Source of the DNA: Escherichia coli
Lineage (GTDB): Bacteria > Pseudomonadota > Gammaproteobacteria > Enterobacterales > Enterobacteriaceae
Length of the DNA: 64,000 bases
Strand: one strand, 5' to 3'
Assembly: GCF_003018255.1 (NCBI RefSeq)
Contig: NZ_CP027440.1
Translations under genes and position numbers: made by a program
Notes under the pieces: generated by a model
Database searches by the model: none
Told to the model about the DNA's origin: nothing
The model's input: the letters and a program-made list of their open reading frames with translations, nothing else
Shown here: positions 23,247 through 57,724 of the stretch, piece after piece
Layout of the letters: every line of letters starts with the position of its first letter
Position numbering within the stretch: the first letter of the stretch is position 1

Positions 23247-23323
<77 letters not shown>

Positions 23324-23356: not shown

Positions 23357-23433
<77 letters not shown>

Positions 23434-23466
23434 ATCAAAATTTGATGAAATAAAGCAGTACGGTGA

Positions 23467-23529
<63 letters not shown>

Positions 23530-23543
<14 letters not shown>

Positions 23544-23570
23544 ATTTATTAGAATGCTGACAAACCGCAA
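23530..23570 (+). repeat. Direct repeat copy 1 (tRNA 3' end plus 27 bp flank); att-like
   Basis: ggcccccgcaaccaatttattagaatgctgacaaaccgcaa recurs identically at 50661-50701. Confidence 0.85.
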
Positions 23571-23596
23571 AGCTACTATTGGCTTGCGGTTTTTTC
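23563..23596 (+). terminator. Intrinsic terminator after the tRNA array
   Basis: Stem AACCGCAA (23563-23570) / TTGCGGTT (23584-23591) followed by a T-run (23592-23596). Confidence 0.55.
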
Positions 23597-24675: not shown

Positions 24676-24727
24676 CCCGAACGCGTATTCAGGTTAAACC
24701 GGAGAAGAAAGGATCCCTAAAAAGGAA

Positions 24728-26272: not shown

Positions 26273-26291
26273 TCGGGCGGTGGTGTGATGT

Positions 26292-36980: not shown

Positions 36981-37085
36981 ATCACAGTTAATAAAGCAAA
37001 AACATTATGGACAAGTGAATTAATCAGATAGTTCAAGCACCTTGAGATTCATTGTATTCATATTTCAGAATAACGGATTATTACA

Positions 37086-41300: not shown

Positions 41301-41683
41301 TTGACGGGCAGGAGCTGGAATATTTCAACCAGAAGGAACGCTGGCAGCGTTTTAACTGGCCGGATGAACAGTGGCAACCCGGCGCATCGCTGAGCTGGAC
41401 CAGTACGCAGGCGATGGAACGCATACTGGCGGATTATCGGGGAAGCTGGAGCCTTATTCGCCTGCTGGAACAGGCGCAGGTGACACCGGTGGACAGCAGT
41501 ACCTTTAAAGTGGTGTGGAAAGCGCAGGACGGCCTGCCGCTGAATTACCTGCTGCGGGTTGAACAGGGTAAAGGGCCGCTGGCGCTGCTGGAACTGAAAA
41601 ACTTCCGCCTGCCGGGACAGGTGTTCCTGACCGGCAGGAGTATGAAGGATGCGGAAGAATACGGGGAAGACGCCGATGAGTGA
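38300..41683 (+). CDS. tssM: T6SS membrane-complex protein TssM (IcmF-like)
   Basis: Start placed at GTG 38300 with AGGAGG at 38287-38292, giving 1127 aa with the canonical TM1-TM2-cytoplasmic-TM3-periplasmic layout. The track's ATG 38141 would overlap the upstream gene by 160 nt. Confidence 0.85.
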   Translation: MVPGLNRLRPRSVSGPAIVMTVAVVVALCTFIHRKPALLGVEPGSSQQMYWMAGVIAAGVVFLIIMGVYHLLNRHAAVQSFELHRQLAAGDDYRAVTTKKADSRHPAMVELAAFLRDRYGPFWRRKIRLLLVTGEPEQAEAIAPGLTGQHWLEGDHTVLIYGGRPSTEPDVALLTALKKLRRSRPLDGIIWPLTEEQSRQTAQLDKGWRELINGGKRLGFQAPLYLWQVCDNGDYQTGRPLQSVGCLLSERCTPEQLAAMLEAQTLPLTEQGMSQLLTDNRHDFLLRLAHTLAERGIAHWQSILKPLLAGGAFSSLRLRGLMFSPPLTAVPEAAPHAWLPSPVWAGVTGDNARGRTVGFPWLRITLMSAVCVLAIWGAGMTTSFFANRALVQETSIQTARALDIRLPLSEQLVALHTLQGELERLQYRIREGAPWYQRFGLERNQQLLAAAFPGYAQAANRLVRDVAVDHLQQQLNAFVALPPNSPQRTATGEQRYKQLKALLMTSRPEKADAAFFSTTLMADDLRYAGVPEGVRQSVLPSLLTFWMANLPEHPQWKTSPPPELTGAVRKILLRQIGVRNAENTLYQNVLQQVSRNYADMTLADMTGDTLTESLFSTEQTVPGMFTRQAWEGQVREAIEQVVTARREEIDWVLSDRQQDTSADISPDMLRNRLTSRYFTDFAGSWLAFLNSIRWKKEDSLSGILDQLTLMADARQSPLIALTDTLAWQAAAGRENRGLSDSLAKSAQELFNGKEKTPQQSREGDVPVGPLDKTFAPLLRLLGDKAGGGDSQLSLQTYLTRVTRVRLKLQQVTNAPDPQEMTQQLAQTVLQGKTVDLTDTRDYGSLIAASLGEEWSGFGQALFVRPVEQSWRQVLTPAADSLNRQWQRAIVSHWDQDFAGRYPFKASQNDASLPLLAQYLRDDGRINQFIAANLSGVLKREGRYWVADAMNTQGLTVNPDFIRALNRLRDVADTAFASGDAGIHFELRAKPARDVMKTHLVIDGQELEYFNQKERWQRFNWPDEQWQPGASLSWTSTQAMERILADYRGSWSLIRLLEQAQVTPVDSSTFKVVWKAQDGLPLNYLLRVEQGKGPLALLELKNFRLPGQVFLTGRSMKDAEEYGEDADE

Positions 41684-43286
41684 ACTGTTGCAAAAGCTGA
41701 CCCGTAGCTGTTTTGCCGACCGGGACGCACTGGACTCGGCGCGAACACAGGCGGCGCTGTGGCAGACATGGCTGCTGCCGGTGACGGCAGATACGCCGGT
41801 CGGGGAAGACCCCGGCTACCACGACGATTTCCTGCGTATCCGCGACGAGATGAACAAACTTTCCGGCGCGGATACGGACCTTATCTGCCAGCTTGCCGAA
41901 TCCCTGCTGCTGACGCAGGCAAAAGACGTGCGCATCGCCACTTACTATATCTGGGCGCGACTGCACCGCGATGGCGAACGCGGACTGGCTGAGGGGCTGG
42001 CGCTGTTAGCCGGACTGGTGGAACGCTTCGGTGCGCAACTGCTGCCCTCGCGCCCGGCAAGCCGAAAAATGGCGCTGGAGTGGCTGGCAGGGGAAAAGAT
42101 GCTCGACAGCCTTGCCCGCTACCCGGAAGTGGCAAAAGAGGATTTTGCGAACATTGTTGCCGCTCTTAATCAACTGACGGTTTCCTTCACTGCATGGCCC
42201 GAAGACCAGCATTCCCCCTCCCTGATGCCGCTGATTAACGCGCTGGAATCACGTCTGGCGCAGTCGGGTGGGATGAACGCGGTGGTGCCGCAGAACAGCA
42301 GCGGCGTTCCGGCACCGTCTTCCCCGGTGGATGCGCCACAGGTACAGACCATCACTTCCGGGCGCGACCTGCTCGACCAGGCGAAAGTGCTGGCCCGTTA
42401 TCTGAACGAACAGCCGCAGGGCTGGCTTTCAGCACACCGGCTGATGAAAACCCTGCGCTGGGACACGGTGCATGAACTGCCGCCGGATGTGGACGGAAAA
42501 ACCCGGCTGGCCCCGCCGCGCACAGAATCACGCAACCAGCTTAAGCGGCTGTATGCTCAGCAGAACTGGACGGAACTGCTGGAGCAGGCCGACCTGATGT
42601 TCAGCACCGGCGTCAGCCATTTCTGGCTGGACATTCAGTGGTATCTGCATCAGGCGCTGACTAAGGCGGGCGCACCGTGGGACAGGTGGACAGCGGTTAT
42701 CCGTCAGGACCTGGCGTTACTACTGGAACGCCTGCCGGGGCTGGAAAATCTGGCATGGAACGACGGCACGCCGTTCGCCGATGAGTTGACGCGCAACTGG
42801 ATAGCGCAGCAGGTCATGATGCGGGAAGACGGCGCATGGCTTGCGGGGAAAGCCGCTGTACCGACAGACGACGCCACAAACGACGTACTGGCGCTGGAGC
42901 CGGAAGCGCTGGAGATGGCAGACAGTCAGGGCGTGGAAGCGGCGCTGGGCTGGATACAGACCCGTCCGGGCATCACCACGGCACGCCAGCGCCTGTTATT
43001 GCGACTGCTGATGGCGCGGGTGGCGGAACAGTACGGTAAAAACGAGATGGCGCTCCTGCTGCTGGAAGAACTGGATATCGCCGCACAGGGGCTGACGCTG
43101 ACGCAGTGGGAGCCGGACCTGCTGTTTGAGGTAAAAGCCCGACAGCTGAAACAGCTGCGCCTGCGGGCGCACCGCTATGCGGATAAAGCCCTGCTGAACC
43201 GAAAAATGGAAATCCTGCTGGGAACGCTGGTGACAATAGATCCGGTACGGGCAGCGGTATTGTGTGATACGCAACATAAGGACTGA
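41676..43286 (+). CDS. tssA: T6SS protein TssA (ImpA N-terminal domain)
   Basis: MSELLQKLTRSCFADRDALDSARTQAALWQTWLLPVTADTPVGEDPGYHDDFLRIRDEM... (ImpA_N signature). ATG 41676 overlaps the tssM stop (ATGAGTGA). Confidence 0.8.
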   Translation: MSELLQKLTRSCFADRDALDSARTQAALWQTWLLPVTADTPVGEDPGYHDDFLRIRDEMNKLSGADTDLICQLAESLLLTQAKDVRIATYYIWARLHRDGERGLAEGLALLAGLVERFGAQLLPSRPASRKMALEWLAGEKMLDSLARYPEVAKEDFANIVAALNQLTVSFTAWPEDQHSPSLMPLINALESRLAQSGGMNAVVPQNSSGVPAPSSPVDAPQVQTITSGRDLLDQAKVLARYLNEQPQGWLSAHRLMKTLRWDTVHELPPDVDGKTRLAPPRTESRNQLKRLYAQQNWTELLEQADLMFSTGVSHFWLDIQWYLHQALTKAGAPWDRWTAVIRQDLALLLERLPGLENLAWNDGTPFADELTRNWIAQQVMMREDGAWLAGKAAVPTDDATNDVLALEPEALEMADSQGVEAALGWIQTRPGITTARQRLLLRLLMARVAEQYGKNEMALLLLEELDIAAQGLTLTQWEPDLLFEVKARQLKQLRLRAHRYADKALLNRKMEILLGTLVTIDPVRAAVLCDTQHKD

Positions 43287-44698
43287 TGGCAATGGGAACA
43301 GGCTACTTTCTGGTCAGGGGGGACAAAACCACCTGCGGCGGCAAAATTATTGAAGGCGCGGACGACCATACGATCATGGGTATCCCGCAGGCGCGGGATA
43401 TGGACCGGGTCACCTGCGGCAGATATCCGGGAATGTTTATTATTGTGGGCGGCGTTCCTGAAACAGATATTCACGGCAGGCTGATGGCGGGGACGCTGGA
43501 CAGTCAGAGCAGTTGCCCGTGTAAGGCACGGTTTATTGCGTCAATGATGGATGATACGTATGAGACGGATGACGGGGAAAGTGAAGCGGAACAACATGCG
43601 CAGTCGGCGAAAAAGGATCTGACTTCTGGTTCTGATTCATCCTCTGATGATGTAAAACTGGATTACAGAATTAAATTATCAGGTAATAAGATACTGACGC
43701 CACTGAATATACCTGATTATAAAGAAATGATTAGCGGTGGTAGTACGAAGAATACAGAAAAAATAGATTTTACCATCACAAATAAAGGCGATGAGGCTGA
43801 AGCGCTTTCTCTGGAAGTGCTTGATGGTAATGAAGTGATTTATAGTGAACGGCAGACCGGTAAATATTGTGATAAGGGAGAGCATGCCTGGCAATGGGAT
43901 GGCTACAGTAATCAAGGCATACTGGATACAACTAAGATAAAAAGCAAATCACTACTCGTAAGACTGATTGCTTTATGTGGTGATATGATGATAAAAGTTG
44001 ATTATCCATTGAAAAATGCTGCGAAAGAAGAAGAGTGGGTTGATGTAAAAGTTGACAGAAATAATAAAGTGGTCGATATAACATGGAGATTATCTGTTAA
44101 GGATAGCGGTACAAAAGGCAGTAACCCTGAGTTATCGCCAATACCTTATAGCGATTTAGTTAGTCTTACTAAAAATGGCGTGGAGTTTTACTGGTCACGA
44201 AATGGAAGTCGCGGCGGGGGAATTGGTGGTAATATCGTTACAGCGATTGGGGTTTTTAAAGTAAATGTAAAGGCTGAGATAAATATTACTCCATCTATGC
44301 GAACTTTTGATTTGATATCATCGTTAGATCCAGATATGCAGTCGTCGGTAAGTCTTTTGGGGTTTGAAAAAATATACCATAACTATGGTGGCTATTATAA
44401 TAACAGCAAGGATGAAATAAAGGCTCTTCTATATAGTAATGAAAGATATAAATGGGATAGTGCTCATGAGATGGGACATAAAGTTATGGATAAATATGGT
44501 TCTGAATCATGGACACATAAGGGGACATCCACGCGGGGTCAAAGTACCATCCCTAATACTCCAATGCCATCTTCAGGAGAGATTGATATAATGAAATATG
44601 CAGATAGCTATGCACCTGATAGATATAAGAGATTGGTCGCGGCAGATGAAGATGTTCAGGCATTGATCTGGTTGAGCAGGGTGAGTTTTAATGATTAG
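43286..44698 (+). CDS. PAAR-domain protein with C-terminal HExxH (zincin-like) putative toxin domain; candidate specialised T6SS effector
   Basis: N-terminal about 85 aa is PAAR-like (GDKTTCGG...GIPQARDMDRVTCG...SSCPCKA) and GC-rich. The remainder is AT-rich and contains SAHEMGHKV. Start overlaps the tssA stop (TGATG). Confidence 0.7.
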   Translation: MAMGTGYFLVRGDKTTCGGKIIEGADDHTIMGIPQARDMDRVTCGRYPGMFIIVGGVPETDIHGRLMAGTLDSQSSCPCKARFIASMMDDTYETDDGESEAEQHAQSAKKDLTSGSDSSSDDVKLDYRIKLSGNKILTPLNIPDYKEMISGGSTKNTEKIDFTITNKGDEAEALSLEVLDGNEVIYSERQTGKYCDKGEHAWQWDGYSNQGILDTTKIKSKSLLVRLIALCGDMMIKVDYPLKNAAKEEEWVDVKVDRNNKVVDITWRLSVKDSGTKGSNPELSPIPYSDLVSLTKNGVEFYWSRNGSRGGGIGGNIVTAIGVFKVNVKAEINITPSMRTFDLISSLDPDMQSSVSLLGFEKIYHNYGGYYNNSKDEIKALLYSNERYKWDSAHEMGHKVMDKYGSESWTHKGTSTRGQSTIPNTPMPSSGEIDIMKYADSYAPDRYKRLVAADEDVQALIWLSRVSFND

Positions 44699-44713
44699 AA
44701 TAATTGTTTTTTA

Positions 44714-45115
44714 TTGTTTTTTTTGAGTGGGTGTACTTCACAAAAAGAGTATTCCAATATAGTCAGGATTGAGAATAGATGCTCCTCAGATATCGATGTC
44801 TTTATTCAGGGATATGTTTCCGGTTCTACGCTGATTTATCAGCATAATATACACTTGCCAGTTGGTGATAGTGATGTATTAGTATATTTTTCCACGGCAG
44901 ATATTGATGATGGTTTTAAATATGAGGGGGCATTCATGATATATAAAGATAGCCGCGGTGAATTGGATTATCCATTCACCATTTCATTGTCAGGGCGCGA
45001 AAAAAAATTTGGGAAGAATGACTTAATTAGATTATCACGAGATATTTCAACAAAAGACGACAGAAAATACGGAGTTATAAGATATATAATCGACAGTCAG
45101 GAAATTTGCCCGTGA
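44714..45115 (+). CDS. Candidate immunity lipoprotein for the PAAR-HExxH protein (5' end disrupted or phase-variable at a T8 tract)
   Basis: Track ORF starts at TTG 44714 (FFLSGCTSQ..., lipobox LSGC without a signal peptide). ATG 44691 in another frame encodes MIRIIVFYCFF then stops; one extra T in the T8 run (44717-44724) would fuse it into a canonical lipoprotein signal peptide. Confidence 0.5.
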   Translation: MFFLSGCTSQKEYSNIVRIENRCSSDIDVFIQGYVSGSTLIYQHNIHLPVGDSDVLVYFSTADIDDGFKYEGAFMIYKDSRGELDYPFTISLSGREKKFGKNDLIRLSRDISTKDDRKYGVIRYIIDSQEICP

Positions 45116-45324
45116 TGTTTTAAGTTATTCGTTCACAATTATTAATTATTGCCTATTATGTAAGGTAAATTTAATTTGGTTCAGAAAAGACAAGAATACA
45201 TCATTATTAAAATCAATAAGTCAGCAACTATCCATAATATATTCACATAGAATAAATTTAACTATGATGTTACTTCTACACCTGCATGATATTCACTTTC
45301 AATGAAAGGAAGATAATCCCTCCG

Positions 45325-47085
45325 ATGGACGATCTAACCCAACGCTACTACGAAGCCGAAATGCGCTACCTGCGTGAAGCGGGGAAAGAATTTGCGCAGG
45401 CTTACCCCGACCGCGCCGCGATGCTCAATCTTGATAAACCCGGCGCACGCGATCCCTATGTGGAGCGCCTGTTCGAAGGCTTCGCTTTTTTAATGGGTCG
45501 CCTGCGTGAAAAGCTGGATGACGACCTGCCCGAACTGACCGAGGGGCTGGTCAGCCTGCTGTGGCCTCACTACCTGCGAACCATCCCGTCACTTTCCGTG
45601 GTTGAACTGTCGACAGATCACCGGCAGATGAAGCAGAGCGAAACACTGAGTAATTTTCAGGTATTGTCGCGTCCTGTTGGCGAGCGCAGAACCCGCTGTG
45701 TCTACAGTGCTACGCGGGATATCACGCTGCATCCGCTGGCGCTGCCGGACGTGTCATTGCAATATGAACCGGACGGGCGCTCGGTTATCCGTCTGCGCTT
45801 TGAATGCGGCCCGCTGGTTGGTGACTGGTCACAGATCGATCTATCCCGTTTGCCGCTCTATCTCAATGCCGACAGCCCGGTGGCCTGTGCGCTGCACCGG
45901 GCTTTAACGCTTGGCACCCAGCAGTTCTGGCTGCGTCTGCCGGGGCAGGAACGCCGTGTGCTGGACGCGCACTTTTCCCCGATGGGTTTTGATGACAATG
46001 ACCGACTGTGGCCAAAAGGCGAGTCGGCGTTCAGCGGCTACCAGTTGCTGCTGGAGTATTTCACCTTCCGCGAAAAGTTTATGTTTGTGGCGCTGAACGG
46101 GCTGGAGAACGTCATCTGGCCGGAAGGGATGAGCGGCTTTGAGATTGACGTGGTGCTGAGCGAGAACTGGCCTCACGACCTGCCGTTTGACAGCGATAAT
46201 ATCCGTCTGCACTGCGTGCCGGTCATCAACCTGTTCCCGCTGGAAGCCGATCCGTTACACCTTTCGCCACTGGAAAACGAATTTCTGCTGCGCCCGATGC
46301 GTATTCAGGACGGGCATACCGAGATTTATTCCGTCGACAACATTATTTCTTCGCGCCATACCGGCAGTCAGGCGTATGTCCCGTTTTCCAGCTTTCGTCA
46401 CCGGGGCGGGATGCTGCGCCACGATGCACCGGAACGCTATTACCATACGCGGGTTAAGCGCGGCCCTTCCGGCCTGCATGATACCTGGCTGATTCTGGGC
46501 GGCGATGCGTTTGATTCCGACCGGATGCTGGAGGATGAAACGCTCTCTTTAAGCCTGACCGGCACTAACGGACAGCTTCCCCGTAAGGCTTTACAGAGCA
46601 CGCTGCTTGATACGCCAGTTCATGCCTCACAGAACGTCCTGCGGGTGCGCAACCTGTGCGCCCCGACGCAGCCCTGTTATCCCCCGGCGCGTGACCGCTT
46701 CCACTGGCGGGTGCTCAGCCACCTCGGTTCTAACTTTCTTTCAATGATGGATAACGCCGAAATTCTGCGCGGCACGCTGGCGCTGTACGACTGGACCGAA
46801 AGCGAGATGAACCGCCGCCGTCTGTCGGCGATTGTCGACGTTCAGCACAGCCTGATACAGCGTTTTGAAAGAGGCTTTCTGCTGCGTGGCGTGGATATTC
46901 AGGTGACGCTGGACAGCACCGGCTTTGCCGGAGAGGGTGATATCACGCTGTTTGGCGAACTGCTGCACCGCTTCTTTGCACTGTATGCCGATATCCACTT
47001 ATTCACTCAACTGACCTTAATTCTGCAACCCACAGGAAAGTGCCTGCAATGGACAGAGCATCACAGCCAGCGCGTACCGGGCTGA
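45325..47085 (+). CDS. tssF: T6SS baseplate protein TssF
   Basis: MDDLTQRYYEAEMRYLREAGKEFAQAYPDRAAMLNL... (typical TssF N-terminus), 586 aa from ATG 45325 with AAGGAAG upstream; the track begins at 45286. Confidence 0.88.
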   Translation: MDDLTQRYYEAEMRYLREAGKEFAQAYPDRAAMLNLDKPGARDPYVERLFEGFAFLMGRLREKLDDDLPELTEGLVSLLWPHYLRTIPSLSVVELSTDHRQMKQSETLSNFQVLSRPVGERRTRCVYSATRDITLHPLALPDVSLQYEPDGRSVIRLRFECGPLVGDWSQIDLSRLPLYLNADSPVACALHRALTLGTQQFWLRLPGQERRVLDAHFSPMGFDDNDRLWPKGESAFSGYQLLLEYFTFREKFMFVALNGLENVIWPEGMSGFEIDVVLSENWPHDLPFDSDNIRLHCVPVINLFPLEADPLHLSPLENEFLLRPMRIQDGHTEIYSVDNIISSRHTGSQAYVPFSSFRHRGGMLRHDAPERYYHTRVKRGPSGLHDTWLILGGDAFDSDRMLEDETLSLSLTGTNGQLPRKALQSTLLDTPVHASQNVLRVRNLCAPTQPCYPPARDRFHWRVLSHLGSNFLSMMDNAEILRGTLALYDWTESEMNRRRLSAIVDVQHSLIQRFERGFLLRGVDIQVTLDSTGFAGEGDITLFGELLHRFFALYADIHLFTQLTLILQPTGKCLQWTEHHSQRVPG

Positions 47086-48128
47086 CCGACCGGCTGGCCC
47101 CGGATATTGCGCGGATCAATTTTTACCGTTTTTGCCAGTTGCTGGAACAGAGCCCGCAGAACGCGCCGCTGGGCAGTACCGACAGCCCCGCCACCGATGC
47201 GGTGCGCTTTCGTCCTCATCCAGGTATGGGCTTTCCGGTCAGCGAGTTAAAAAACGTTGAACGTGACGTGGGCAATCCCGACGCGCCCCCCACGGTGCGC
47301 ACCACTTTTCTCGGCCTGTACGGCGTGGATTCGCCGCTGCCAACCGCCTATCTGGACTACATTACCCAGCGTCATGACGGACATGACGCAGTGATGGCGT
47401 TTCTCGATATTTTTAACCATCGCTTTATTACTCAGTACTACCGCATCTGGCGCAAATATAACTACCCGGCGTCGTTTGAAGCAGGTGCCGTGGATGACAT
47501 TTCCCGTTGTCTGCTGGGACTCATCGGGCTGGGTATTCCCGGCAGCGAGAACCATATCGCCACGCCGGTATCCCGTTTTCTGGCCCTGCTCAGCGTGATG
47601 CGCCTGCCGACGCGCACGGCGGAAGGCGTTACGGCACTGGTGGGACTGCTTGCCCCGCTGACGAAAGCGACGGTGGTGCCTCATGATCCGCAGCCTGTAA
47701 TTCTCCCGGCCCCTGCGGGTCTGTCAAAAAATTCACGCATCAGCCTGAAAACGCGAACGCTGCTGGGGCGTACCGGTACCGACGTCAACAGCCAGTTGCT
47801 GCTGAAACTGTATACCGAAGATGCCGCAGAAGCGCGTGGCTGGCTGCCCGGCGGGCAACTGCACAGCGATTTGCTGGTGCTGCTGCGCGTTTATCTGGGC
47901 TGGCGCTGTCAGGCCCGTCTGCAACTGACGCTGCCCGTCAGCCTGTTGCCTGCTGCCCGGCTGGGAAAACAGCGTGTACAGATTAGCCGTACCGGCATCC
48001 TTCGCGCCTCCTTTGCCGCGCCCGCGACCGGAACAGTGACGGTCAGTCTGGGGCGTTATCAGGGATTAATACCCGCTTTTTCCATTCGTAACAGGGAGAG
48101 TATGACTCATGTTTCCTATTCGTTTTAA
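47040..48128 (+). CDS. tssG: T6SS baseplate protein TssG
   Basis: 362-aa ORF overlapping the tssF 3' end, with INFYRFCQLLEQ near the N-terminus; start may be ATG 47049. Confidence 0.8.
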   Translation: MPAMDRASQPARTGLTDRLAPDIARINFYRFCQLLEQSPQNAPLGSTDSPATDAVRFRPHPGMGFPVSELKNVERDVGNPDAPPTVRTTFLGLYGVDSPLPTAYLDYITQRHDGHDAVMAFLDIFNHRFITQYYRIWRKYNYPASFEAGAVDDISRCLLGLIGLGIPGSENHIATPVSRFLALLSVMRLPTRTAEGVTALVGLLAPLTKATVVPHDPQPVILPAPAGLSKNSRISLKTRTLLGRTGTDVNSQLLLKLYTEDAAEARGWLPGGQLHSDLLVLLRVYLGWRCQARLQLTLPVSLLPAARLGKQRVQISRTGILRASFAAPATGTVTVSLGRYQGLIPAFSIRNRESMTHVSYSF

Positions 48129-48645
48129 ACGTCCGGCGTTGCTCTGTATGGCGATGCTGACGGTTGTTCTGAGTGGCTGCGGGCTGATTCAGAAAGTGGT
48201 GGATGAATCGAAAAGCGTGGCCTCAGCCGTTTTCTACAAACAAATCAAAATACTGCATCTCGATTTCTTCTCCCGCAGCGCCCTGAATACGGATGCGGAA
48301 GATACGCCGCTTTCCACGATGGTGCATGTCTGGCAACTGAAAACCCGCGAAGATTTTGATAAGGCGGATTATGACACCCTGTTTATGCAGGAAGAGAAGA
48401 CGCTGGAGAAGGACGTACTGGCAAAACACACCGTCTGGGTAAAACCTGAAGGCACGGCATCCCTGAATGTGCCGCTGGATAAAGAGACGCAGTTTGTCGC
48501 CATTATTGGGCAGTTTTATCACCCGGATGAAAAAAGCGACAGCTGGCGTCTGGTGATCAAAAGGGACGAACTGGAGGCCGACAAGCCGCGCTCGATTGAA
48601 CTGATGAGAAGCGACCTGCGACTGCTGCCTCTCAAGGATAAATAA
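48109..48645 (+). CDS. tssJ: T6SS outer-membrane lipoprotein TssJ
   Basis: 178 aa with signal peptide and lipobox (MLTVVLSGCG); size and position typical of TssJ/SciN. Confidence 0.85.
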   Translation: MFPIRFKRPALLCMAMLTVVLSGCGLIQKVVDESKSVASAVFYKQIKILHLDFFSRSALNTDAEDTPLSTMVHVWQLKTREDFDKADYDTLFMQEEKTLEKDVLAKHTVWVKPEGTASLNVPLDKETQFVAIIGQFYHPDEKSDSWRLVIKRDELEADKPRSIELMRSDLRLLPLKDK

Positions 48646-48648
48646 CCG

Positions 48649-49077
48649 ATGGCGACACCTTCCTTATATGAAATGCTGACGTTCAGTTTCAGCGGCGAGT
48701 TACCGCTGGAACAGGTCAGTGAGCGGGATCAGCTTATCCTTTCCGTGATGGACAATATGCAACGCATTATCAACTGTCGGGCAGGCACACTGGCGCATTT
48801 GCCGGATTACGGTCTGCCGGATCTCAGCCTGATCCATCAGGGGATGGCTGCGGGTATTCATAGCCTGATGCGCCAGATTGAAGAAACGCTGCTGCGTTAT
48901 GAACCACGCCTGAATCAGATACAGGTGGAGTTACTGCCCCAGCCCGGTCCGGGGCATCTTAATTACCTGATCCACGCGCAGCTTCCCGATACCGGCTGGA
49001 TACGCTTTGATGGCGTATTTTCTCCGGAAGGACGAATTGTTCTGCGTCATCTCAAACAACAGGAGCGGGCGTACTGA
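48649..49077 (+). CDS. tssE: T6SS baseplate protein TssE (gp25-like)
   Basis: 142-aa ORF between tssJ and the tagA-like gene; size and context fit TssE. Confidence 0.75.
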   Translation: MATPSLYEMLTFSFSGELPLEQVSERDQLILSVMDNMQRIINCRAGTLAHLPDYGLPDLSLIHQGMAAGIHSLMRQIEETLLRYEPRLNQIQVELLPQPGPGHLNYLIHAQLPDTGWIRFDGVFSPEGRIVLRHLKQQERAY

Positions 49078-50453
49078 TGGCAAGTAACGCGAATTTTATC
49101 AGCCAGTTCGTCATGGGCGGCGATCCCTGTACTTATAAGGAATCCGGTGAACTGCAGGCTGAAATGAGTAAACTGACTCACCCGGCCCGACCGGATGTGG
49201 ACTGGCGTCAGGTGGAAAAACTCTGCCTCGCGCTGTTCCGGCAAAATGGCGTGGAACTACAGACGCTGGTCTGTTACGTGCTGGCAATAACCAGACGGCA
49301 GGGGCTGGCAGGGATGGCAGACGGACTCGGTTCACTGGATATACTGCTCCAGCGCTGGGCTGACTTCTGGCCGGTACAGGTACATTCCAGAATATCACTG
49401 CTCAGCTGGGTCACAGAAAAAATGCAGCAGGCACTGAGAACGCTGGATATTCAGTATCAGGATCTGCCGCAGATCTACCGTTGTGTACAGCATCTTTCCG
49501 CCATCGAAACCACGCTGCAACAGTGTGAACTGTGGCATATGACGAAGCTGGACGTATTGTCCGGGCAGTTTCGCAATGCGGCTCTGCGTCTGGAACGGCT
49601 GGCGCCTCAGGGAGCGGAAACCATTATCACTCCCCCTGAATTACCCCGCCGGGAAATGAATCAACCGAAAAAGTCAGAGGAAAGTCCACAGCCGGTTTTT
49701 GCAACCAGATCCGTTCAGCAAAACGATAAGGATGCCAGTCCACCCGTGCCATCCCCTGAAATCTCCCGGCAGCGGACATGGCCGATATTTATGGCCGGAA
49801 TGGTTGTGATGGCCGGTCTCGGCGGAACAGGATTATGGGGCTGGTCGCAGCTTAATCAGCCGGACGCGCTAATCCAGCGAATACAACTGTCTGTCATGCC
49901 GTTGCCGCAGTCGCTGGAGAGCGGCGAACTGGCAAAGCTGGATGTAAAGGATAAGGCGCTGCTGGCTCAGGACAGAACAATTGCGGCAAGTCAGATGCAA
50001 CTGGAGCAGTTAAACAAATTGCCTGCCCGCTGGCCACTGGAGCAGGGATATCGCCAGCTACGCCAGCTTGATGCCCTGTGGCCGGATAATCCTCAGGTCA
50101 GGGCGCTGAACGCGCAGTGGCGCAAACAGCGGGAGCTGAGCGCCCTGTCTGCTGAGGCACTGAATGGCTATGCTCAGGCGCAGAGCCAGCTACAGCGCCT
50201 GTCGGCGCAGCTGGATGCACTGGATGAACGTAAGGGGAGATATCTGACCGGTTCGGAACTAAAAACGGCGGTGTACGGCATCCGGCAGTCGTTAAAGGAG
50301 CCGCCGCTGGAAGAACTGCTTCGGCAACTGGAAGAGCAAAAACAGACCGGAGAGGTTTCGCCAACGCTGTTGACGCAAATTGATACCCGGTTAAATCAGT
50401 TGTTGAATCGCTATGTCATTTTACTGGATACGAAGGTGGAACAAAGTCAGTAA
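49077..50453 (+). CDS. tagA: TagA-like TssA-family accessory protein (ImpA_N-like domain, internal hydrophobic segment, C-terminal coiled coil)
   Basis: 458 aa; N-terminal region resembles ImpA_N (DPCTYKESGELQAEMSKL...DVDWRQVEKLCLALFRQNGVELQTLVCYVLA); hydrophobic segment WPIFMAGMVVMAGLGGTGLWGW; Q/L-rich C-terminus. ATG overlaps the tssE stop. Confidence 0.6.
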   Translation: MASNANFISQFVMGGDPCTYKESGELQAEMSKLTHPARPDVDWRQVEKLCLALFRQNGVELQTLVCYVLAITRRQGLAGMADGLGSLDILLQRWADFWPVQVHSRISLLSWVTEKMQQALRTLDIQYQDLPQIYRCVQHLSAIETTLQQCELWHMTKLDVLSGQFRNAALRLERLAPQGAETIITPPELPRREMNQPKKSEESPQPVFATRSVQQNDKDASPPVPSPEISRQRTWPIFMAGMVVMAGLGGTGLWGWSQLNQPDALIQRIQLSVMPLPQSLESGELAKLDVKDKALLAQDRTIAASQMQLEQLNKLPARWPLEQGYRQLRQLDALWPDNPQVRALNAQWRKQRELSALSAEALNGYAQAQSQLQRLSAQLDALDERKGRYLTGSELKTAVYGIRQSLKEPPLEELLRQLEEQKQTGEVSPTLLTQIDTRLNQLLNRYVILLDTKVEQSQ

Positions 50454-50660
50454 ACATCGGGGGATTTATGTACCAATAAGGGATATGTGACCTTGCCATT
50501 TTTTAAAATGGAGTCTCTGTGTACAAAAAAGAGAGGAACAGGCCATTCGATCTACTCGTTGATTCACATCAGATAATGAGTGTATATTTCGGTAGATAGC
50601 TTGGGTTCGGGAACAGTGAATACCTTAAGTTTCAAAAGATTGGATTAACCTCTTGACTGT

Positions 50661-50701
50661 GGCCCCCGCAACCAATTTATTAGAATGCTGACAAACCGCA
50701 A
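50661..50701 (+). repeat. Direct repeat copy 2 (duplicate of tRNA-fMet 3' end plus 27 bp); att-like module boundary
   Basis: Identical to 23530-23570, with no tRNA body upstream. Confidence 0.85.
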
Positions 50702-50727
50702 TGTGTTCTACAAATTGCGGTTTTTTT
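50693..50727 (+). terminator. Intrinsic terminator-like hairpin at the second repeat
   Basis: Stem AACCGCAAT / ATTGCGGTT followed by T7 (50721-50727); same stem as at 23563-23591 but with a different loop. Confidence 0.5.
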
Positions 50728-50753
50728 GTATTTAAAATCTTTGTTCGCTGAAC

Positions 50754-51710
50754 TCACAACACGTTTTTTATCTCCCTTCCTGCGAAGTAATCAATTATCG
50801 ACTGGGCAACGTGTATCCCGGTTTGCTGGTATGACTCAACGGTGGCGGCCGCGATATGCGGCGTTGTAATGATATTTTTGGCATGTAGCAGTGGGCTAAA
50901 TTGCGCCAACGGTTCAGAGCTAAACACATCCAGCGCCGCAAACACATTTCGTTCTTCAATCACCTGAAGTAAAGCGCCCTCATCCAGCAACTTTCCCCTT
51001 GCGGCATTGATGATCAGAGCACCATTGCGCATCATCGACAAATATTTATGACTAATGAAGTTCTCCAGCTCAGAAGAAAAAGGCAAAAGAACAATGATGA
51101 CATGCGACTGCATAAAGATATCTTCAATTGATACAAACTGAACTCCAGCTTTGTCAGCAACCTGATAGTCGGGTTGTTTGTCAAAAGCTAAAAGCTCAAC
51201 ATCAAAACCAGATAACCTTTTCGCCAGTGTTTTGCCAATATTGCCGTAGCCAAGCAGGCCAATACGTTTACCTTGTAACTCGCAGCCATGCGACTCACCC
51301 CAATAACCATTTTGCATTGCATGATAGCTACCGGGGATATTTCTCATGCTCGCAAAAATAAGACCGATGATAAATTCCGCGACTGCGTTTGAATTAATCC
51401 CAACAGCATTATTGACCACAATACCTGATTGTCGAGCCGTATGAAGATCAATATTATCAATCCCTGTCCCGAATCTCGATATTATTTTCACTCCTGGTAG
51501 TCGCGATAACGTATCCGCTTGATAACAATCTTTTCCGGCAATGACTGCGCAAATAGATTCTCGTAATACTGTGGATTCTGATTTAACCAGATGCTCCACA
51601 TTATTCTTGATAATAAGGTTAAAATGATTTTCTCTTAGCAGCTTGCTGGCAGAAACACAACGCGCTGAAAAGCTGGGAACGGTGACCAGAACGTTTTTCA
51701 TAGCTGACAC
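50754..51710 (-). CDS. D-isomer-specific 2-hydroxyacid dehydrogenase family protein (NAD-binding)
   Basis: 318 aa with Rossmann motif LLGYGNIGKTLAKRL; last gene of the minus-strand operon. Confidence 0.8.
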   Translation of the reverse strand: MSAMKNVLVTVPSFSARCVSASKLLRENHFNLIIKNNVEHLVKSESTVLRESICAVIAGKDCYQADTLSRLPGVKIISRFGTGIDNIDLHTARQSGIVVNNAVGINSNAVAEFIIGLIFASMRNIPGSYHAMQNGYWGESHGCELQGKRIGLLGYGNIGKTLAKRLSGFDVELLAFDKQPDYQVADKAGVQFVSIEDIFMQSHVIIVLLPFSSELENFISHKYLSMMRNGALIINAARGKLLDEGALLQVIEERNVFAALDVFSSEPLAQFSPLLHAKNIITTPHIAAATVESYQQTGIHVAQSIIDYFAGREIKNVL

Positions 51711-51771
51711 TCACATCAATGAACGCCACCCCAAAAGATGGCGTGACCGGTTACTGTTTTATATTCTAAAA

Positions 51772-52368
51772 TTATGAGTTTGCTTTAATACCGAGCGCAC
51801 CTCCTGGATGATATAAGCCGAAATCAGCACGAGTAAACTTTTTCAATTCGGAGAGCGCAAGCGCCACCGCATCACCAACAACCAGAACGACTGTTGATGA
51901 GCATGACGGCGCTAAACCTAAATTATCCGCCTCACTTTTTACGGGAATTTCAACGGATAAATCACAACTTATCGCAAGCGATGAGCGATGACTGCGGGTA
52001 AAGGAGATCAAATAATTACCCATTTTTTTCAGACTAGGTAGTGTTGCCAGGATTTCTGTCGTCTCACCACTGTTTGAAATAAGAATAACAACATCATCTT
52101 TCGCCACCATCCCAAGATCGCCGTGTACGGCTTCAGTACCGTGAACAAAAAACGAGGGAGTTCCAGTGCTGGCAAATGTTGCGGCGAGTTTTCGGGCAAT
52201 AATACCGGACTTACCGACACCAATAAAAACAACTTTCCCCTGACAAGACTGTAATACTTTAATTAAATTTGCGACCTCCGAAAGGGGGGAATCAATAACT
52301 TCTTCAACTGCTTTATGTTCGTTACGCATAAAATGTTTAATGAGATGGATAAGATCCGTACTGTTCAT
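51772..52368 (-). CDS. SIS-domain (sugar isomerase / sugar-phosphate binding) protein
   Basis: 198 aa with SIS motif VVFIGVGKSGIIARKLAATFASTGTPSFFVH. Confidence 0.8.
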   Translation of the reverse strand: MNSTDLIHLIKHFMRNEHKAVEEVIDSPLSEVANLIKVLQSCQGKVVFIGVGKSGIIARKLAATFASTGTPSFFVHGTEAVHGDLGMVAKDDVVILISNSGETTEILATLPSLKKMGNYLISFTRSHRSSLAISCDLSVEIPVKSEADNLGLAPSCSSTVVLVVGDAVALALSELKKFTRADFGLYHPGGALGIKANS

Positions 52369-52370
52369 TT

Positions 52371-53546
52371 TTATTTTCCTTGATTAATATTTTTAATTAC
52401 ACTCGCAAGACGCGTAAGCCCCATATATAATTTTTCTCGACCGCAGGCCAGGTTCAGACGAAGGTAGCCCTCCCCCTCCGTTCCATAGACATTCCCCGCC
52501 ATAATGCCCACTTTGCCTTCATGAATTAATCGACTGTAGAATTCATCAAAGGAATAACCAATAGCAGAGCAATCTATCCACGAAAAATAGCAACCATCAG
52601 CTGGCCTTACGATCAATTCTGGAGTATTTTCGTTCAGATACTGCTGGGTGAATTGAATGTTAGAGGCGATATGTGCCTTTAATGACTTTAACCATCCCTC
52701 ACATTCATTATAGGCAACAATGGTTGCAATTATATTCAGTACTGATGGGGAGTTTACGAAATCGCGATACCTCGATATCGTTCTGAACTTATGATTATAA
52801 TCCTCGTCAGTTGAAATCAGATACGATCCTGTTAGCGCAGGAACATTAAATGTTTTCGATATCGAGTTAAATACCACTACTTTTTCTTTTTTTATTTTAA
52901 GCGCGGATGTAAAGCTACGATTAAAAACAAAATCACTATGAATTTCATCTGAACATAACCAGACATTATGCCTTGTACAGCTTGTAGCGATTTTAAGCAG
53001 TTCTTCTTCCGACCAGACTGTTCCTGTCGGATTATGAGGATTACATAATAACACCATCTTTGCGCTTTTAATCTTAAGATCAAAATCTTGCCAGTTGATA
53101 GCGTAGCCCCCCTCATTTTTTATAATCAAAGAGGCTGTCAGAATATTTCGCTCGCTATGTTTAATTACATCAAAAAATGCATTATAGACAGGTGTAAAAA
53201 CGAGAATATTATCACCATGCGATGTCAATAACTCTATTGCCTTTGCAATAGAGTACATCACACTGGGGCTATAGGTTATCCATTCAGGTTTAATGTCTGT
53301 TTGATATTGTTGATGATACCAGTTTACTATCGCATTCAGATATTCACCATGTTGCCAACGACTGTACCCTAAAATCGGGTGTTCCAGGCGTTTTTTTAAT
53401 GCTCTGGTGATAGCGTCTGGTATCGGAAGATCCATATCTGAAATAGAGAAGGGTAATACATCTTTTACACCAAATCTGTCCTCGCAAAAGTCCCATTGGG
53501 TGCAATATGTTCCTTTACGGGAAATAGGAGTATTAAAAATATCCAT
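52371..53546 (-). CDS. PLP-dependent class I/II aminotransferase-fold enzyme, MalY/PatB-like C-S lyase
   Basis: 391 aa with PLP-lysine motif SISKTFN; similar in size and features to MalY. Confidence 0.8.
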   Translation of the reverse strand: MDIFNTPISRKGTYCTQWDFCEDRFGVKDVLPFSISDMDLPIPDAITRALKKRLEHPILGYSRWQHGEYLNAIVNWYHQQYQTDIKPEWITYSPSVMYSIAKAIELLTSHGDNILVFTPVYNAFFDVIKHSERNILTASLIIKNEGGYAINWQDFDLKIKSAKMVLLCNPHNPTGTVWSEEELLKIATSCTRHNVWLCSDEIHSDFVFNRSFTSALKIKKEKVVVFNSISKTFNVPALTGSYLISTDEDYNHKFRTISRYRDFVNSPSVLNIIATIVAYNECEGWLKSLKAHIASNIQFTQQYLNENTPELIVRPADGCYFSWIDCSAIGYSFDEFYSRLIHEGKVGIMAGNVYGTEGEGYLRLNLACGREKLYMGLTRLASVIKNINQGK

Positions 53547-55126
53547 CAGCGCATCCCCATGTAGTTATCCATATCCCTACGCAGGGCGATGACTTTAGTG
53601 CCGATAATGACTTGTAGGGTATTTTGATCAAGTTTAACAACCGCAATCCCGCCAGCTCTTTTTATTGCAACTTCATCAATCAATCCCATATCTGCGATTG
53701 TTAAACGTAAACGAGTTACGCAATTATCCAGTGACTTAATATTCTCTTTACCACCAAGTGCCTTAACCATCTGCTCCGCTGCTTGCAACTCTGATTTATC
53801 AAGAGTTGGGGTATCCGCTATAGCCGTATCTTCGTGAGCGTTCAGCGTGACAGGACTGGACTCTTCACGTCCTACGGTCATCAGGTTAAATTTGAGAATG
53901 GTCCAACGGAACACAAAGTAATAAATGAAGAAATAGGCCACTTCAACACACACCGCGATCGGCCAACCTGTTCTTGTGCCACGCAATACGCCAAAGCTAA
54001 TAAATTGAATCAGATCGCCAGTAAATCCCATCTTCACGCCCATATATGGCAAGACCATGTTGGCGAATCCATTCATAAAGGCATGGAAGACAAACAGCAG
54101 CGGACTGACAAATAAGAACAGAAATTCAATCGGTTCGCTGACGCCACCAATAATAACCGTAAGCACACCGGAAATAAGCAATGCTTTGATAGCCTTTCTG
54201 TTTTGAGCATGAGCAGTGCGATACATGGCCAGTGCAGCACCAGCCAGACCGTACTGAATCATCAGTTTGCCCTGCTCCATTTTCCCCGCCAAATCCAGCG
54301 GAATGACCGCATTCTCTTTGACGTACGCCATAAACATGTTCAGGGTGCCGTAATACTCTTCGCCGCCAATCACAGCCGAACCGCCGATTGGCGTAAAGCG
54401 GAACACTGACGTCACCAGATGGTTTAAGCCAAAAGGAATCGTCACACGTTCGGCAACTGCATAGAAGAAATAACCAACAGGACCGGAAGTTGATATCCAG
54501 TGGCCAATGAGCATGAAGAGATTGAAAAATGGCGGCCAGATAAAAGGAATGATCAGACCAAATCCACTCATCACAATCAGTGTAATGATAGGCACCAGAC
54601 GTGGGCCGCTATAAAAACCTAATGATTCTGGAATGCGTAAATTAACGATCTTTTTATACATGCTGGCGACTAATAACCCAGCAACAATTCCCCCTAACAC
54701 GCTGGTATTGTAGGACTGGATCCCCAGAATGATGTTTTGCCCATGTGTCGACATTTGGTCAGCAACGACCAATAAGTCGTGCTGTTTAAGATAAAAGTTC
54801 GTTCCCAGATGCATCGCCATAAAACCAATTAAGCCAGAAAAAGCACCATAGGCTTTATCCTCTTTATCTTTTAATAATCCTAAGGGAATCGCTATCGCAA
54901 ACAATACAGGTAAATTAACAAAGGCAAACAAACCAAGACTAACAATGAAATCAAGTATGGTTTTAATTATTGGAATAGCCAGAAATGGAATTAACTTTGC
55001 CATATCATCACTGGCTAAACCACTTCCCAGCCCTAGCATCATGCCACATACACTTAGCAGAGCAATGGGATACATAAATGCCTTCCCCAGGCTCTGAAAA
55101 AAACTCCAGGCTTTCTTTTGTTTCAT
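53546..55126 (-). CDS. PTS glucose/maltose-family EIICB component (MalX/PtsG-like)
   Basis: 526 aa; polytopic EIIC followed by an EIIB domain with the active-site cysteine motif NCVTRLRL. Confidence 0.85.
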   Translation of the reverse strand: MKQKKAWSFFQSLGKAFMYPIALLSVCGMMLGLGSGLASDDMAKLIPFLAIPIIKTILDFIVSLGLFAFVNLPVLFAIAIPLGLLKDKEDKAYGAFSGLIGFMAMHLGTNFYLKQHDLLVVADQMSTHGQNIILGIQSYNTSVLGGIVAGLLVASMYKKIVNLRIPESLGFYSGPRLVPIITLIVMSGFGLIIPFIWPPFFNLFMLIGHWISTSGPVGYFFYAVAERVTIPFGLNHLVTSVFRFTPIGGSAVIGGEEYYGTLNMFMAYVKENAVIPLDLAGKMEQGKLMIQYGLAGAALAMYRTAHAQNRKAIKALLISGVLTVIIGGVSEPIEFLFLFVSPLLFVFHAFMNGFANMVLPYMGVKMGFTGDLIQFISFGVLRGTRTGWPIAVCVEVAYFFIYYFVFRWTILKFNLMTVGREESSPVTLNAHEDTAIADTPTLDKSELQAAEQMVKALGGKENIKSLDNCVTRLRLTIADMGLIDEVAIKRAGGIAVVKLDQNTLQVIIGTKVIALRRDMDNYMGMR

Positions 55127-55157
55127 GTGGGTTATCTCATATAAATGTTATATATAA

Positions 55158-55982
55158 TTAGTCCATTAATACTTTGGTACGAATAGAGAGATATAGTTTT
55201 TCTTCTAAAATTAATTCATATTTAAAAGTGGCATACAGATACCGTTCAATTTCATGAATTGCGCGCTGTAACAGGATGTCCTTTTCAAGAAACTGTTCAT
55301 AGATATCACCAATATCTTTCTGTTTTATTTTTTCATTGCATAACACGCGACTTGAAAAATATTTAAGGTGCATCATAAATCTGGAATAGTTAAATGAACT
55401 TCTGTCCACCTTTCTGTTATAAACAACTTCAATAAGCTCCGTGATTATTTGCGACAACTCAATAATCCGTACTGATTCATAATCAACTGAATTTTCATAA
55501 TTATTTAAAATATGCAATGCTATAAAACCAATCTCATCATCAGGAAGTTGAACGCTGAATTGCTCATTAATGATAGTTAATGCATCGCGACTTATCGCAT
55601 ACTCTGCTTTGTACAACGCTTTGATTTCATCAAGGAAAACATTATTAATTTGTATACCTGAAACTACTCGGGATATTGCATTCGAAATGTGATCCGCAAG
55701 AATCAATAGTAGCGATGGATTGAGATTTTTTTCGAGATTTTTCTCCGCATATTGCACTATTTTTTCGGCAACAAAAATATACTCAATATCCACATGTTCA
55801 ATCAATTTGTAGAGTTTATTTTTTTGTTCGTTTCTGACATAAAAAATCCGGTTAGCCGGATGTTCAGGGACCGACATTCCATATTTTTTGTTATAACCGA
55901 CGCCAGGTCCAGAAATGATAACCTCCTGTCCATTCATCGATGCCTGTACACAATTATTGTTCATGACTTTTTCGATGATCAT
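55158..55982 (-). CDS. BglG/SacY/GlcT-family transcriptional antiterminator (CAT RNA-binding domain plus two PRDs)
   Basis: MIIEKVMNNNCVQASMNGQEVIISGPGVGYNKKYG (CAT domain) followed by PRD-like regions. Start placed at ATG 55982; the track extension to 56039 translates the leader RAT/terminator. Confidence 0.8.
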   Translation of the reverse strand: MIIEKVMNNNCVQASMNGQEVIISGPGVGYNKKYGMSVPEHPANRIFYVRNEQKNKLYKLIEHVDIEYIFVAEKIVQYAEKNLEKNLNPSLLLILADHISNAISRVVSGIQINNVFLDEIKALYKAEYAISRDALTIINEQFSVQLPDDEIGFIALHILNNYENSVDYESVRIIELSQIITELIEVVYNRKVDRSSFNYSRFMMHLKYFSSRVLCNEKIKQKDIGDIYEQFLEKDILLQRAIHEIERYLYATFKYELILEEKLYLSIRTKVLMD

Positions 55983-55993
55983 TCCATGACTCC

Positions 55994-56068
55994 AAAAAAA
56001 AAGGCAAGGCACGTCAGAAGTAATAATTACTTCAAACATTGCCTTGCCTGATTTAACAGTTACAAGAT
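55994..56068 (-). promoter_or_regulatory. RAT (ribonucleic antiterminator) overlapping an intrinsic terminator in the leader of the antiterminator/PTS operon
   Basis: Minus strand: TCTTGTAACTGTTAAATCAGGCAAGGCA (close to sacB/bgl RAT consensus), whose 3' half GGCAAGGCA pairs with TGCCTTGCC (inner stem GAAGTA/TACTTC), followed by T9 and the start codon. Confidence 0.75.
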
Positions 56069-56118
56069 GATTAACTAATGCGTATACATTACACGGAATT
56101 GTGCTTAATTAAAGAGAT

Positions 56119-56143
56119 GGTCGGCTTATTTTTCAAGCCGACA
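56119..56143 (-). terminator. Hairpin candidate downstream of amiC
   Basis: Stem GTCGGCTT / AAGCCGAC with a 7-nt loop; the following U-tract on the minus strand is interrupted (CATCTCTTTAATT), so it is weak. Confidence 0.3.
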
Positions 56144-56239: not shown

Positions 56240-57493
56240 TCATCCCCTTCTCGCCAGCGTCGCCCCATCGGCAAAATACGCTTTAATCCCCGCAAGAATA
56301 GACTCCGCAACTTCCTGCTGGAAAGTCGCCGTTTTCAGTTTACGTTCTTCCTCAACGTTACTGATAAACGCCGTTTCGACCAGAATGGAGGGAATATCTG
56401 GTGCCTTTAGTACGGCAAACCCGGCCTGTTCAACTTGATTTTTATGCAGCTTGTTGATTTTACCGAGCTTATTCAGCACCGCTTTACCAAACTTCAGGCT
56501 GTCGGCAATGGTCAGCGACTGCACCATATCGAACATGGTGTGGTCGACATAGCGGTCACCGCTTTTGCTCACGCCACCAATCAAGTCCGAGGCGTTCTGG
56601 GTTTGTGCCAGATATTTTGCCGCAGTACTGGTTGCACCTTTGGTTGAGAGCGCAAACACAGAGGAACCGCTCGGCTGACGACTGGTAAAGGCGTCGGCAT
56701 GGATAGAGACAAACAGGTCAGCACGCTGTTTCTGGGCTTTTGCTACGCGCACTTGCAACGGAATGAAGATGTCTTCATTGCGCGTCATGTACACCTTCAT
56801 ATTGCCCTCTTTCTCGATCAGAGAGCGCAGACGGCGAGCTATTTGCAATACCACGTCTTTTTCGCGCGTTTTGTATTTCCCCACCGCACCGGAGTCTTCG
56901 CCACCGTGGCCAGGGTCAAGCATAATGACAATAGGACGATCGCGCCCTGCTTTACCCGGTTGTGGACCACTTTGTGCTGGCGGCACCTGCTTTTCGAGGT
57001 CGCCTTTGTTGTAATCCTCCAGCAGCGCCAGCAGCGGGTCCTGCATATCCTGTGCATTGGCCGGATAGAGGTCCATCACCAGACGCTCTTTAAACCCGGC
57101 GACCGGCGCAAGGGCAAACAGCTGCGGTTTTACGTTTTGCTTTAATTCAAAAACCATACGTACGGTTTGCGGGTCAAATTGCCCGACGCGCGCCGACTTG
57201 ATGAACGGGTCGTCAGCGCGGATTTGCGCAGCCATCCCCTTGAGTACCGAGTTCAGGTTTACATCTTCGATATCCACCACCACGCGTTCAGGATTACTCA
57301 ACGCGAACTGCTTATATTTCAGCTGACGATTTGATTCTACCGTCACGCGGGTGTAGCTGGACGCAGGCCAGACGCGCACCGCCACGACCTGGCTGACCGC
57401 AGCCAGGCTGACCTGACTTACGCTCAATAGCCACATGGCACCCGCGCCTTGCAGTAAACGACGACGGCTGATTGCAGTGTTGGATCCTGACAT
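56240..57493 (-). CDS. amiC: N-acetylmuramoyl-L-alanine amidase AmiC (Tat-exported, Amidase_3)
   Basis: [31 protein letters not shown] (twin-arginine signal) ...; 417 aa from ATG 57493; the track's 30 upstream codons are a non-native extension. Confidence 0.93.
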
Positions 57494-57724
57494 GCCTCTC
57501 CCGAGCAAAAGAAATCTAAGCTGTGTAACAAGTAAACGACCAATTTGACCGGAAACTTTAGCGAAAGACGCATAATCTGTCATCTATAAAACGGTAAACA
57601 TTCTTTTTATATTCACGGTATTACTGATAAAAAACTCGCTCCCGCATAAAATTTACACTTGCACCCTGCGAAAAAACAGAATAAAAATACAATAATTTCG
57701 AATAATCATGCAAAGAGGTGTACC

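Follow-up and report, generated by a model that had tools for sequence, protein, structure and literature searches.

[quoted passage not shown] In E. coli K-12, the two RATs of the bgl operon, which are established by experiment, read in the genome as GGATTGTTACTGCATTCGCAGGCAAAACC, before bglG (RAT1), and GGATTGTTACCGCACTAAGCGGGCAAAACC, between bglG and bglF (RAT2), and the 3' end of each runs into a terminator. To our knowledge, BglG is the single CAT-PRD antiterminator of K-12. [quoted passage not shown] The malXY genes of K-12 are controlled by the MalI repressor and not by antitermination. Contacts with RNA have been mapped for LicT, whose CAT domain uses residues 5-10, Gly26, Arg27, Phe31 and Gln32; Arg27 is key for affinity, and positions 27 and 32, which are variable within the family, are known determinants of specificity (PMC3105407). 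The mechanism itself is well known and a matter for textbooks. Here it is seen at a locus that seems not to have been investigated in this respect.

We analysed a 64-kb stretch of E. coli DNA, from here on the window, in which a RAT and an intrinsic terminator stand ahead of an operon for a CAT-PRD antiterminator and a PTS transporter (Table 1). The initial annotation, made from the letters of the DNA, had proposed this arrangement, and the prediction is supported by RNA folding, by the statistics of the motif, by a RAT model built from other loci and by the leaders of orthologs. Because a RAT hairpin of the BglG/LicT type overlaps a strong terminator directly upstream of it, the operon is almost certainly controlled by antitermination. 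As judged from sequence and modelled structure, the element is very probably an RNA switch operated by a protein, as in BglG/SacY systems, in which RAT and terminator are set against each other and govern the operon by sugar-dependent antitermination.

Table 1. Features of the leader and operon, in window coordinates
Feature	Coordinates	Strand	Remarks
Upstream leader block	56070..56122	-	Conserved; presumably promoter and transcription start
RAT hairpin	56042..56067	-	UCUUG-UAA-CUG-UUAAAU-CAG-G-CAAGG; from motif, folding, covariance model and orthologs
Intrinsic terminator	55994..56049	-	Hairpin 56049..56002 and U9 at 56002..55994; 5' arm 56049/48..56042 common to the RAT
In-frame upstream ATG	56037..56039	-	19 codons upstream, within the terminator stem; not a real start
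Shine-Dalgarno GGAG	55990..55993	-	Directly 3' of the U-run, 7 nt before the ATG; invariant in aligned orthologs
Start codon ATG	55982..55980	-	11 nt beyond the U-run
CAT-PRD antiterminator, 274 aa	55158..55982	-	Presumed RAT-binding protein; from LicT-model alignment and PDB matches
MalX-like glucose-family EIICB, 526 aa	53546..55126	-	Presumed PRD1-phosphorylating sensor; without EIIA domain
MalY/PatB-family PLP C-S lyase	52371..53546	-	TIGR04350 368 bits, above the cut-off of 340
KpsF/GutQ-like SIS-domain protein, 198 aa	51772..52368	-	Short, without CBS domains
D-2-hydroxyacid / phosphoglycerate dehydrogenase-like protein	50754..51710	-	Missing from the Enterobacter operon

Read directly, the minus strand from 56067 to 56042 is UCUUGUAACUGUUAAAUCAGGCAAGG, which carries the RAT core of both K-12 bgl RATs. 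From 56070 onward, the order on this strand is UCA-UCUUGUAACUGUUAAAUCAGGCAAGG-CAAUGUUUGAAGUAAUUAUUACUUCUGACGUGCCUUGCC-UUUUUUUUU-GGAG-UCAUGGA-AUG. The conserved core UUGUnACUG, loop, CAGGCAA is present and forms a middle and an upper stem with the upper internal loop between them; the hairpin as a whole is made up of a lower stem of 5 bp, the upper internal loop UAA/G, an upper stem of 3 bp and an apical loop of 6 nt. Folded alone, it is weak, at -4 to -6 kcal/mol. A search with the full 29-nt bgl RAT1, allowing up to three mismatches, gave no match, since 13 of the 29 positions are different at the site, and the core pattern TTGTWACYG-N4-8-CRGGCAA was therefore used. This pattern occurs once in the window, against 0.00 occurrences expected. 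The RAT letters quoted on the minus strand in the initial annotation are correct, and the core that they contain, matching the K-12 bgl RATs, is unique in the window.

A covariance search had also been suggested there. Our model was built from seven RATs, all from other loci: two from bgl, three adjacent to a licT-bglP locus of Clostridium tertium and two adjacent to one of Thermoanaerobacterium. With filters off, its top match in the window is 56065..56044, with 16.4 bits and an E-value of 0.017 under a rough calibration; the match spans only RAT positions 4-26, and canonical RATs reach 39-46 bits. Orthologous sites are likewise recovered by the model. The canonical lower asymmetric loop (nt 3 / 26-27) and the G1G2/C28C29 stem, which fall in model positions 1-3 and 27-30, are absent at the site and in every ortholog. 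In place of the lower loop, folding lengthens the middle stem by a C-G pair and a U.G or U-A pair. The second match of the model, 51171..51209 on the plus strand (E 0.078), was rejected; it consists of an outer stem only, with a 24-nt insert replacing the core, and is antisense to the dehydrogenase gene in which it falls. An Rfam scan of 50000-58000, with E-values up to 10, returned a spurious snoRNA match and nothing from a RAT-type family, and is little informative.

The RAT is linked in cis to a CAT-PRD antiterminator gene and to a PTS EII gene. The two genes are separated by 31 nt in which there is no hairpin. The EIICB scores 536 bits with TIGR02004, below the cut-off of that model, and its EIIB_glc domain scores above cut-off; it carries the EIIB cysteine motif CVTRLR at residue 469. 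As the transporter comes without an EIIA domain, it presumably uses EIIA-Glc. Within the EIICB gene, 55104..55080 resembles a terminator, with three G-C pairs and a poor tail. The operon block corresponds to c3405-c3410 of strain CFT073, in PAI-metV (PMC2831201). A literature search on c3405-c3410 and PAI-metV, whose reach did not extend to the RAT scan of Gordon et al. 2015, found no paper on the regulation of the operon.

The antiterminator scores 225.7 bits with the NCBIfam model for LicT (cut-off 300), 179.2 with that for GlcT (320) and 104.4 with that for BglG (322), below the cut-off in all three cases. On these scores we place it in a separate branch of the BglG/SacY family, outside the LicT, GlcT and BglG equivalogs. 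Its alignment to the LicT model covers residues 1-268, that is, the full length, with a CAT domain followed by two PRDs, and PF03123 and PF00874 are recorded on the representative of its cluster, to which it is 95% identical. Matches in the PDB include LicT CAT-PRD1, the LicT PRDs and GlcT domains, with the PRD histidines aligned. To be specific, His98, His157 and His205 align with His100, His159 and His207 of LicT, which accounts for three of the four LicT phosphorylation histidines. The position of LicT His269, at about residue 267, is Arg in Escherichia and Atlantibacter, His in Enterobacter and Asn in E. coli BglG; since this second PRD2 histidine varies, the control exerted through PRD2 may differ from that in LicT. 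Among the RNA contacts known from LicT, K5, N8-N10 (the KxxNNN stretch) and the equivalent of Gly26 are conserved, and Arg27, Phe31 and Gln32 are replaced by Pro, Tyr and Asn, respectively. The closest homologs outside the enterobacteria are clostridial LicT proteins, with about 35% identity.

Orthologs of the antiterminator share 93% identity with the window protein in E. whittamii and another E. coli, 78-80% in two Citrobacter species and a C. freundii-complex contig, 77% in Atlantibacter hermannii and 43-44% in Enterobacter sp., where the gene order is the same minus the dehydrogenase. RAT and antiterminator co-occur in all four genera. In Escherichia, Citrobacter and Atlantibacter, only two bases of the 26-nt RAT vary. 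The first, in the loop, is A but becomes C in Atlantibacter; the second, which ends the stem, changes from G to A, so that the U.G pair becomes U-A, and is matched in the terminator 3' arm by a change from C to U. In Enterobacter, the upper stem reads CUA...UAG in place of CUG...CAG, a double compensatory change from G-C to A-U. Covariation statistics for the RAT are weak: the set comprises five distinct RATs with a single double change, and 45 of 500 shuffles score as high.

These comparisons bear on the question of which protein acts on the RAT. A real RAT might be operated by, or shared with, a non-cognate antiterminator, for which BglG, present in all E. coli, is the candidate; both bgl RATs have the core UUGUnACUG...CAGGCAA in common with the site, and cross-talk within the family is documented in B. 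subtilis (PMC3105407). The lower loop and outer stem, however, which carry specificity in the B. subtilis systems, are wholly unlike those of the bgl RATs, and 13 positions differ from RAT1, as given above. The operon's own CAT-PRD protein, moreover, has the specificity residues Pro and Asn where BglG and LicT have Arg and Gln, and RAT and protein travel jointly in four genera. Given the divergent lower half of the RAT and the co-travelling protein, use of the site by BglG is unlikely, and we allow it a small chance.

The terminator is formed by AGGCAAGGCA...UGCCUUGCCU, from 56049/56048 to 56003/56002, with a predicted energy of -25.9 kcal/mol, or -27.6 kcal/mol if the outer A-U pair is included. 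The RAT 3' strand makes up the first 7-8 nt of its 5' arm. When the 136-nt leader is folded and compared with shuffled sequences, z = -4.65, and none of 200 shuffles folds as well. A simple terminator scan did not call the hairpin 56049..56002, for the sole reasons that its stem is bulged and that the apical-loop rule of the scan is unmet. The initial annotation had described the 3' half of the RAT as the 5' arm of a long hairpin followed by T9 and the start codon, a description with which both coordinates and folding agree, and its expectation of a stable terminator is borne out by the energies just given. It had further held RAT and terminator to be mutually exclusive. This was upheld by folding with and without the RAT as a constraint: once the RAT is enforced, the stem adjoining the U-run is lost, and only the top of the hairpin forms, 10 nt from the U-run. 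Another terminator-like hairpin, 55861..55846 on the minus strand (ATCCGGCTAACCGGAT followed by T5), lies in the CAT-coding part of the antiterminator gene; it is probably due to chance and was rejected because E. whittamii, Citrobacter and Atlantibacter do not have it.

The terminators of the orthologs were folded one by one. In all nine orthologous leaders, a terminator of -25 to -28 kcal/mol with U7-U9 is found, and the overlap with the RAT is kept. The middle of the Atlantibacter terminator has a different sequence that is again complementary, and compensatory changes occur in Citrobacter too; a gapless alignment of the terminators was left uncounted because in it the 3' arm of Atlantibacter is out of register by a single base. 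In Enterobacter, the terminator GGGCAAUAC...GUAUUGCCC-U7 (-26.4 kcal/mol) is unrelated in sequence, yet it still starts inside the RAT 3' strand (AAGGG). This persistence of the overlap, although the terminator itself has been replaced, is a stronger argument than covariation.

It also bears on the suggestion that the RAT has a role other than antitermination, for instance in the stability or localisation of the transcript. According to a review, Gordon et al. 2015 searched the genome of a uropathogenic E. coli for RATs and proposed non-antitermination roles for many RAT-like motifs, and most putative RATs in E. coli genomes are without terminator overlap (PMC12591593). The RAT here, by contrast, overlaps a strong terminator, and the overlap has been conserved even where the terminator sequence was replaced, which makes a role of this kind very unlikely.

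The operon occupies that end of an accessory island which is nearer to amiC. The island, of about 32.7 kb, lies between three tandem tRNA-Met genes (23247-23543) and the stop codon of amiC (window 23247-56239); amiC itself lies at 57583..56240 on the minus strand. Genomes without the leader match the window only up to the amiC stop codon, so the whole intergenic region is part of the island. Of 5426 complete E. coli genomes, 1688 have the leader, with one copy in each. The remainder of the island holds type VI secretion genes, among them a tssA-like gene at 49077-50453, with tssG, tssJ and tssE in a matching RefSeq genome, and the island content fits PAI-metV of CFT073. In E. coli E2348/69 (NC_011601.1), the 166-nt leader is 100% identical to that of the window; the operon there directly adjoins the tRNA-Met genes with no type VI secretion block, and its EIIC gene, interrupted by an internal stop, carries a pseudogene annotation.

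About 100 nt past the amiC stop codon, the minus strand carries a further hairpin, GTCGGCTTGaaaaaTAAGCCGAC, at 56142..56120, with a poor T tail; its stem is retained with a different sequence in E. whittamii and in E. coli E69. It is probably the terminator of amiC, supplied by the island. The RAT and terminator could themselves be read as no more than a constitutive terminator, or an insulator, that separates amiC from the operon, with the likeness to a RAT arising by chance, in that the hairpin does lie downstream of amiC on the same strand and the match to the RAT model is only moderately significant. But amiC has the separate hairpin directly 3' of it, the core motif is unique in the window where none was expected, and the RAT is much more conserved than the flanking DNA and shows compensatory change. 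What rules out a plain amiC terminator is that the RAT and terminator are conserved in Citrobacter and Enterobacter, where the gene upstream is not amiC, and we regard the reading as a whole as highly improbable.

Among Escherichia, Citrobacter and Atlantibacter, conservation starts at about 56122 and is high from there down to the start codon, and the DNA further upstream is barely alignable. A scan of the leader for consensus promoters found nothing; the hexamer TAATGT at 56091..56086 is a candidate -10 element. A CRP-like half-palindrome, TGTGA-ctgatg-TCGAA, is seen at 56152-56167 on the minus strand, about 100 nt upstream of the RAT, and the distant Enterobacter ortholog has TGTGA-cggcac-TCAAA (L009 4829-4844) about 90 nt upstream of its own RAT. 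To go by its sequence, this half-palindrome may be a catabolite-control site for the operon promoter. At the other end of the leader, a two-codon mini-ORF, AUG-GAA-UGA (55979-55987, minus strand), overlaps the true start codon as AUGA. In the leaders of the other Escherichia and of Citrobacter and Atlantibacter it reads AUG-AAA-UGA, and it is missing in Enterobacter.

The 19 codons by which the reading frame extends upstream of the antiterminator had been assigned to the leader in the initial annotation, rightly so: PGAP puts the start of the protein at 55982, and the family N-terminus aligns at MIIEKV. Although the frame is open from 56039, it is scarcely credible that the region is coding and that the antiterminator begins there with a 19-residue N-terminal extension, because the upstream ATG, which is buried in the terminator stem with no Shine-Dalgarno sequence before it, is ACG in Atlantibacter and in two of three Citrobacter leaders (Citrobacter MGH106 and the C. 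freundii-complex contig).

The preferred reading, an antitermination switch worked by the operon's own CAT-PRD protein, can be set out as follows. By default, the hairpin 56049..56002 and its U9 would form and transcription would halt 11 nt before the first gene. An active dimer of the operon-encoded CAT-PRD protein would bind and stabilise the weak RAT (56067..56042), which would then sequester GGCAAGG (56048..56042), the base of the terminator stem. With the leftover upper hairpin standing 10 nt from the U-run, transcription would continue through the genes for the antiterminator, the EIICB, the lyase, the SIS protein and the dehydrogenase. On the model of BglG, LicT and GlcT, the MalX-like EIICB, when idle, would phosphorylate PRD1 (His98 and His157) and so keep the antiterminator inactive, and transport of the operon's sugar, the presumed inducer, would drain the phosphate and relieve the inhibition. 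Because the antiterminator gene lies behind its own terminator and no second switch follows, the circuit would be positively autoregulated and dependent on basal read-through.

It is possible, though we hold it only tentatively, that the locus represents a distinct and self-contained RAT/CAT pair, confined to Enterobacteriaceae and orthogonal to BglG, in which a RAT with no canonical lower loop is paired with a CAT domain bearing Gly-Pro...Tyr-Asn rather than Gly-Arg...Phe-Gln, and which controls a MalX/MalY-like PTS and C-S lyase pathway in PAI-metV of extraintestinal pathogenic E. coli. If the switch works as predicted, E. coli would have a second natural pair of RAT and antiterminator, in about a third of complete genomes and on an island long linked to uropathogenic strains. 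The predicted switch also offers a practical handle, as fusing the leader to a reporter would allow sugars to be screened for the inducer. With its diverged lower RAT half and the Pro and Asn of its CAT domain, the locus is also a natural test case for the rules of specificity established in B. subtilis.

In comparison with known systems, the leader of bglGFB is alike in several respects. It belongs to the same host species, has the core UUGUnACUG..CAGGCAA and has a RAT whose 3' end is the start of the terminator 5' arm; its first RAT and terminator precede the antiterminator gene, which leads to autoregulation. The bgl operon differs in that bglG and bglF are separated by another RAT and terminator, where the present locus has only its hairpin-free gap, and in that the bgl RATs have a GGA...AAACC lower loop and stem that the present RAT is missing. 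The sensors also differ, BglF being an EII of the beta-glucoside family and the sensor here being MalX-like, and the antiterminator reaches 104 bits on the BglG model, with 25% identity to BglG in alignment.

The LicT, SacY and SacT systems are related in that the antiterminator scores best on the LicT model. The RATs of C. tertium have an upper internal loop (UAA/G) and upper stem identical to those here. At single positions, SacT likewise has Pro at the site of LicT Arg27, and SacY likewise has Asn at that of Gln32 (PMC3105407). The RATs of these systems have a lower asymmetric loop (positions 3 and 26-27) and an outer G-C stem, both absent here, and the partner in these and in the clostridial LicT loci is an EIIBCA for beta-glucosides or sucrose, whereas here it is a glucose-family EIICB without EIIA. 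In gene content, the nearest parallel is malX-malY of K-12, where a paralogous MalX-like EIICB is followed by a MalY/PatB lyase, and the present operon resembles an expanded malXY paralog to which SIS and dehydrogenase genes have been added.

The initial annotation had called the mechanism typical of GlcT-ptsG in Firmicutes and unusual in E. coli. The latter holds for K-12, but the leader is present in 1688 of the complete genomes of the species. As to the former, GlcT-ptsG does combine a CAT-PRD antiterminator with a glucose-family EII, and in both cases the lower part of the RAT departs from the LicT-type loop; the likeness fails on layout, in that the switch here precedes the regulator gene and 31 nt free of hairpins precede the EIICB, and the antiterminator, at 179 bits, falls short of the GlcT cut-off of 320. 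NagY-nagE of E. faecalis, from another phylum and concerned with another sugar, is similar by its description (PMC12591593): the antiterminator gene comes first in the operon, the EII belongs to the glucose family (GlcNAc), and one RAT lies in the 5' UTR. The layout of the present locus is closer to those of the bglG leader and nagY-nagE than to that of glcT-ptsG.
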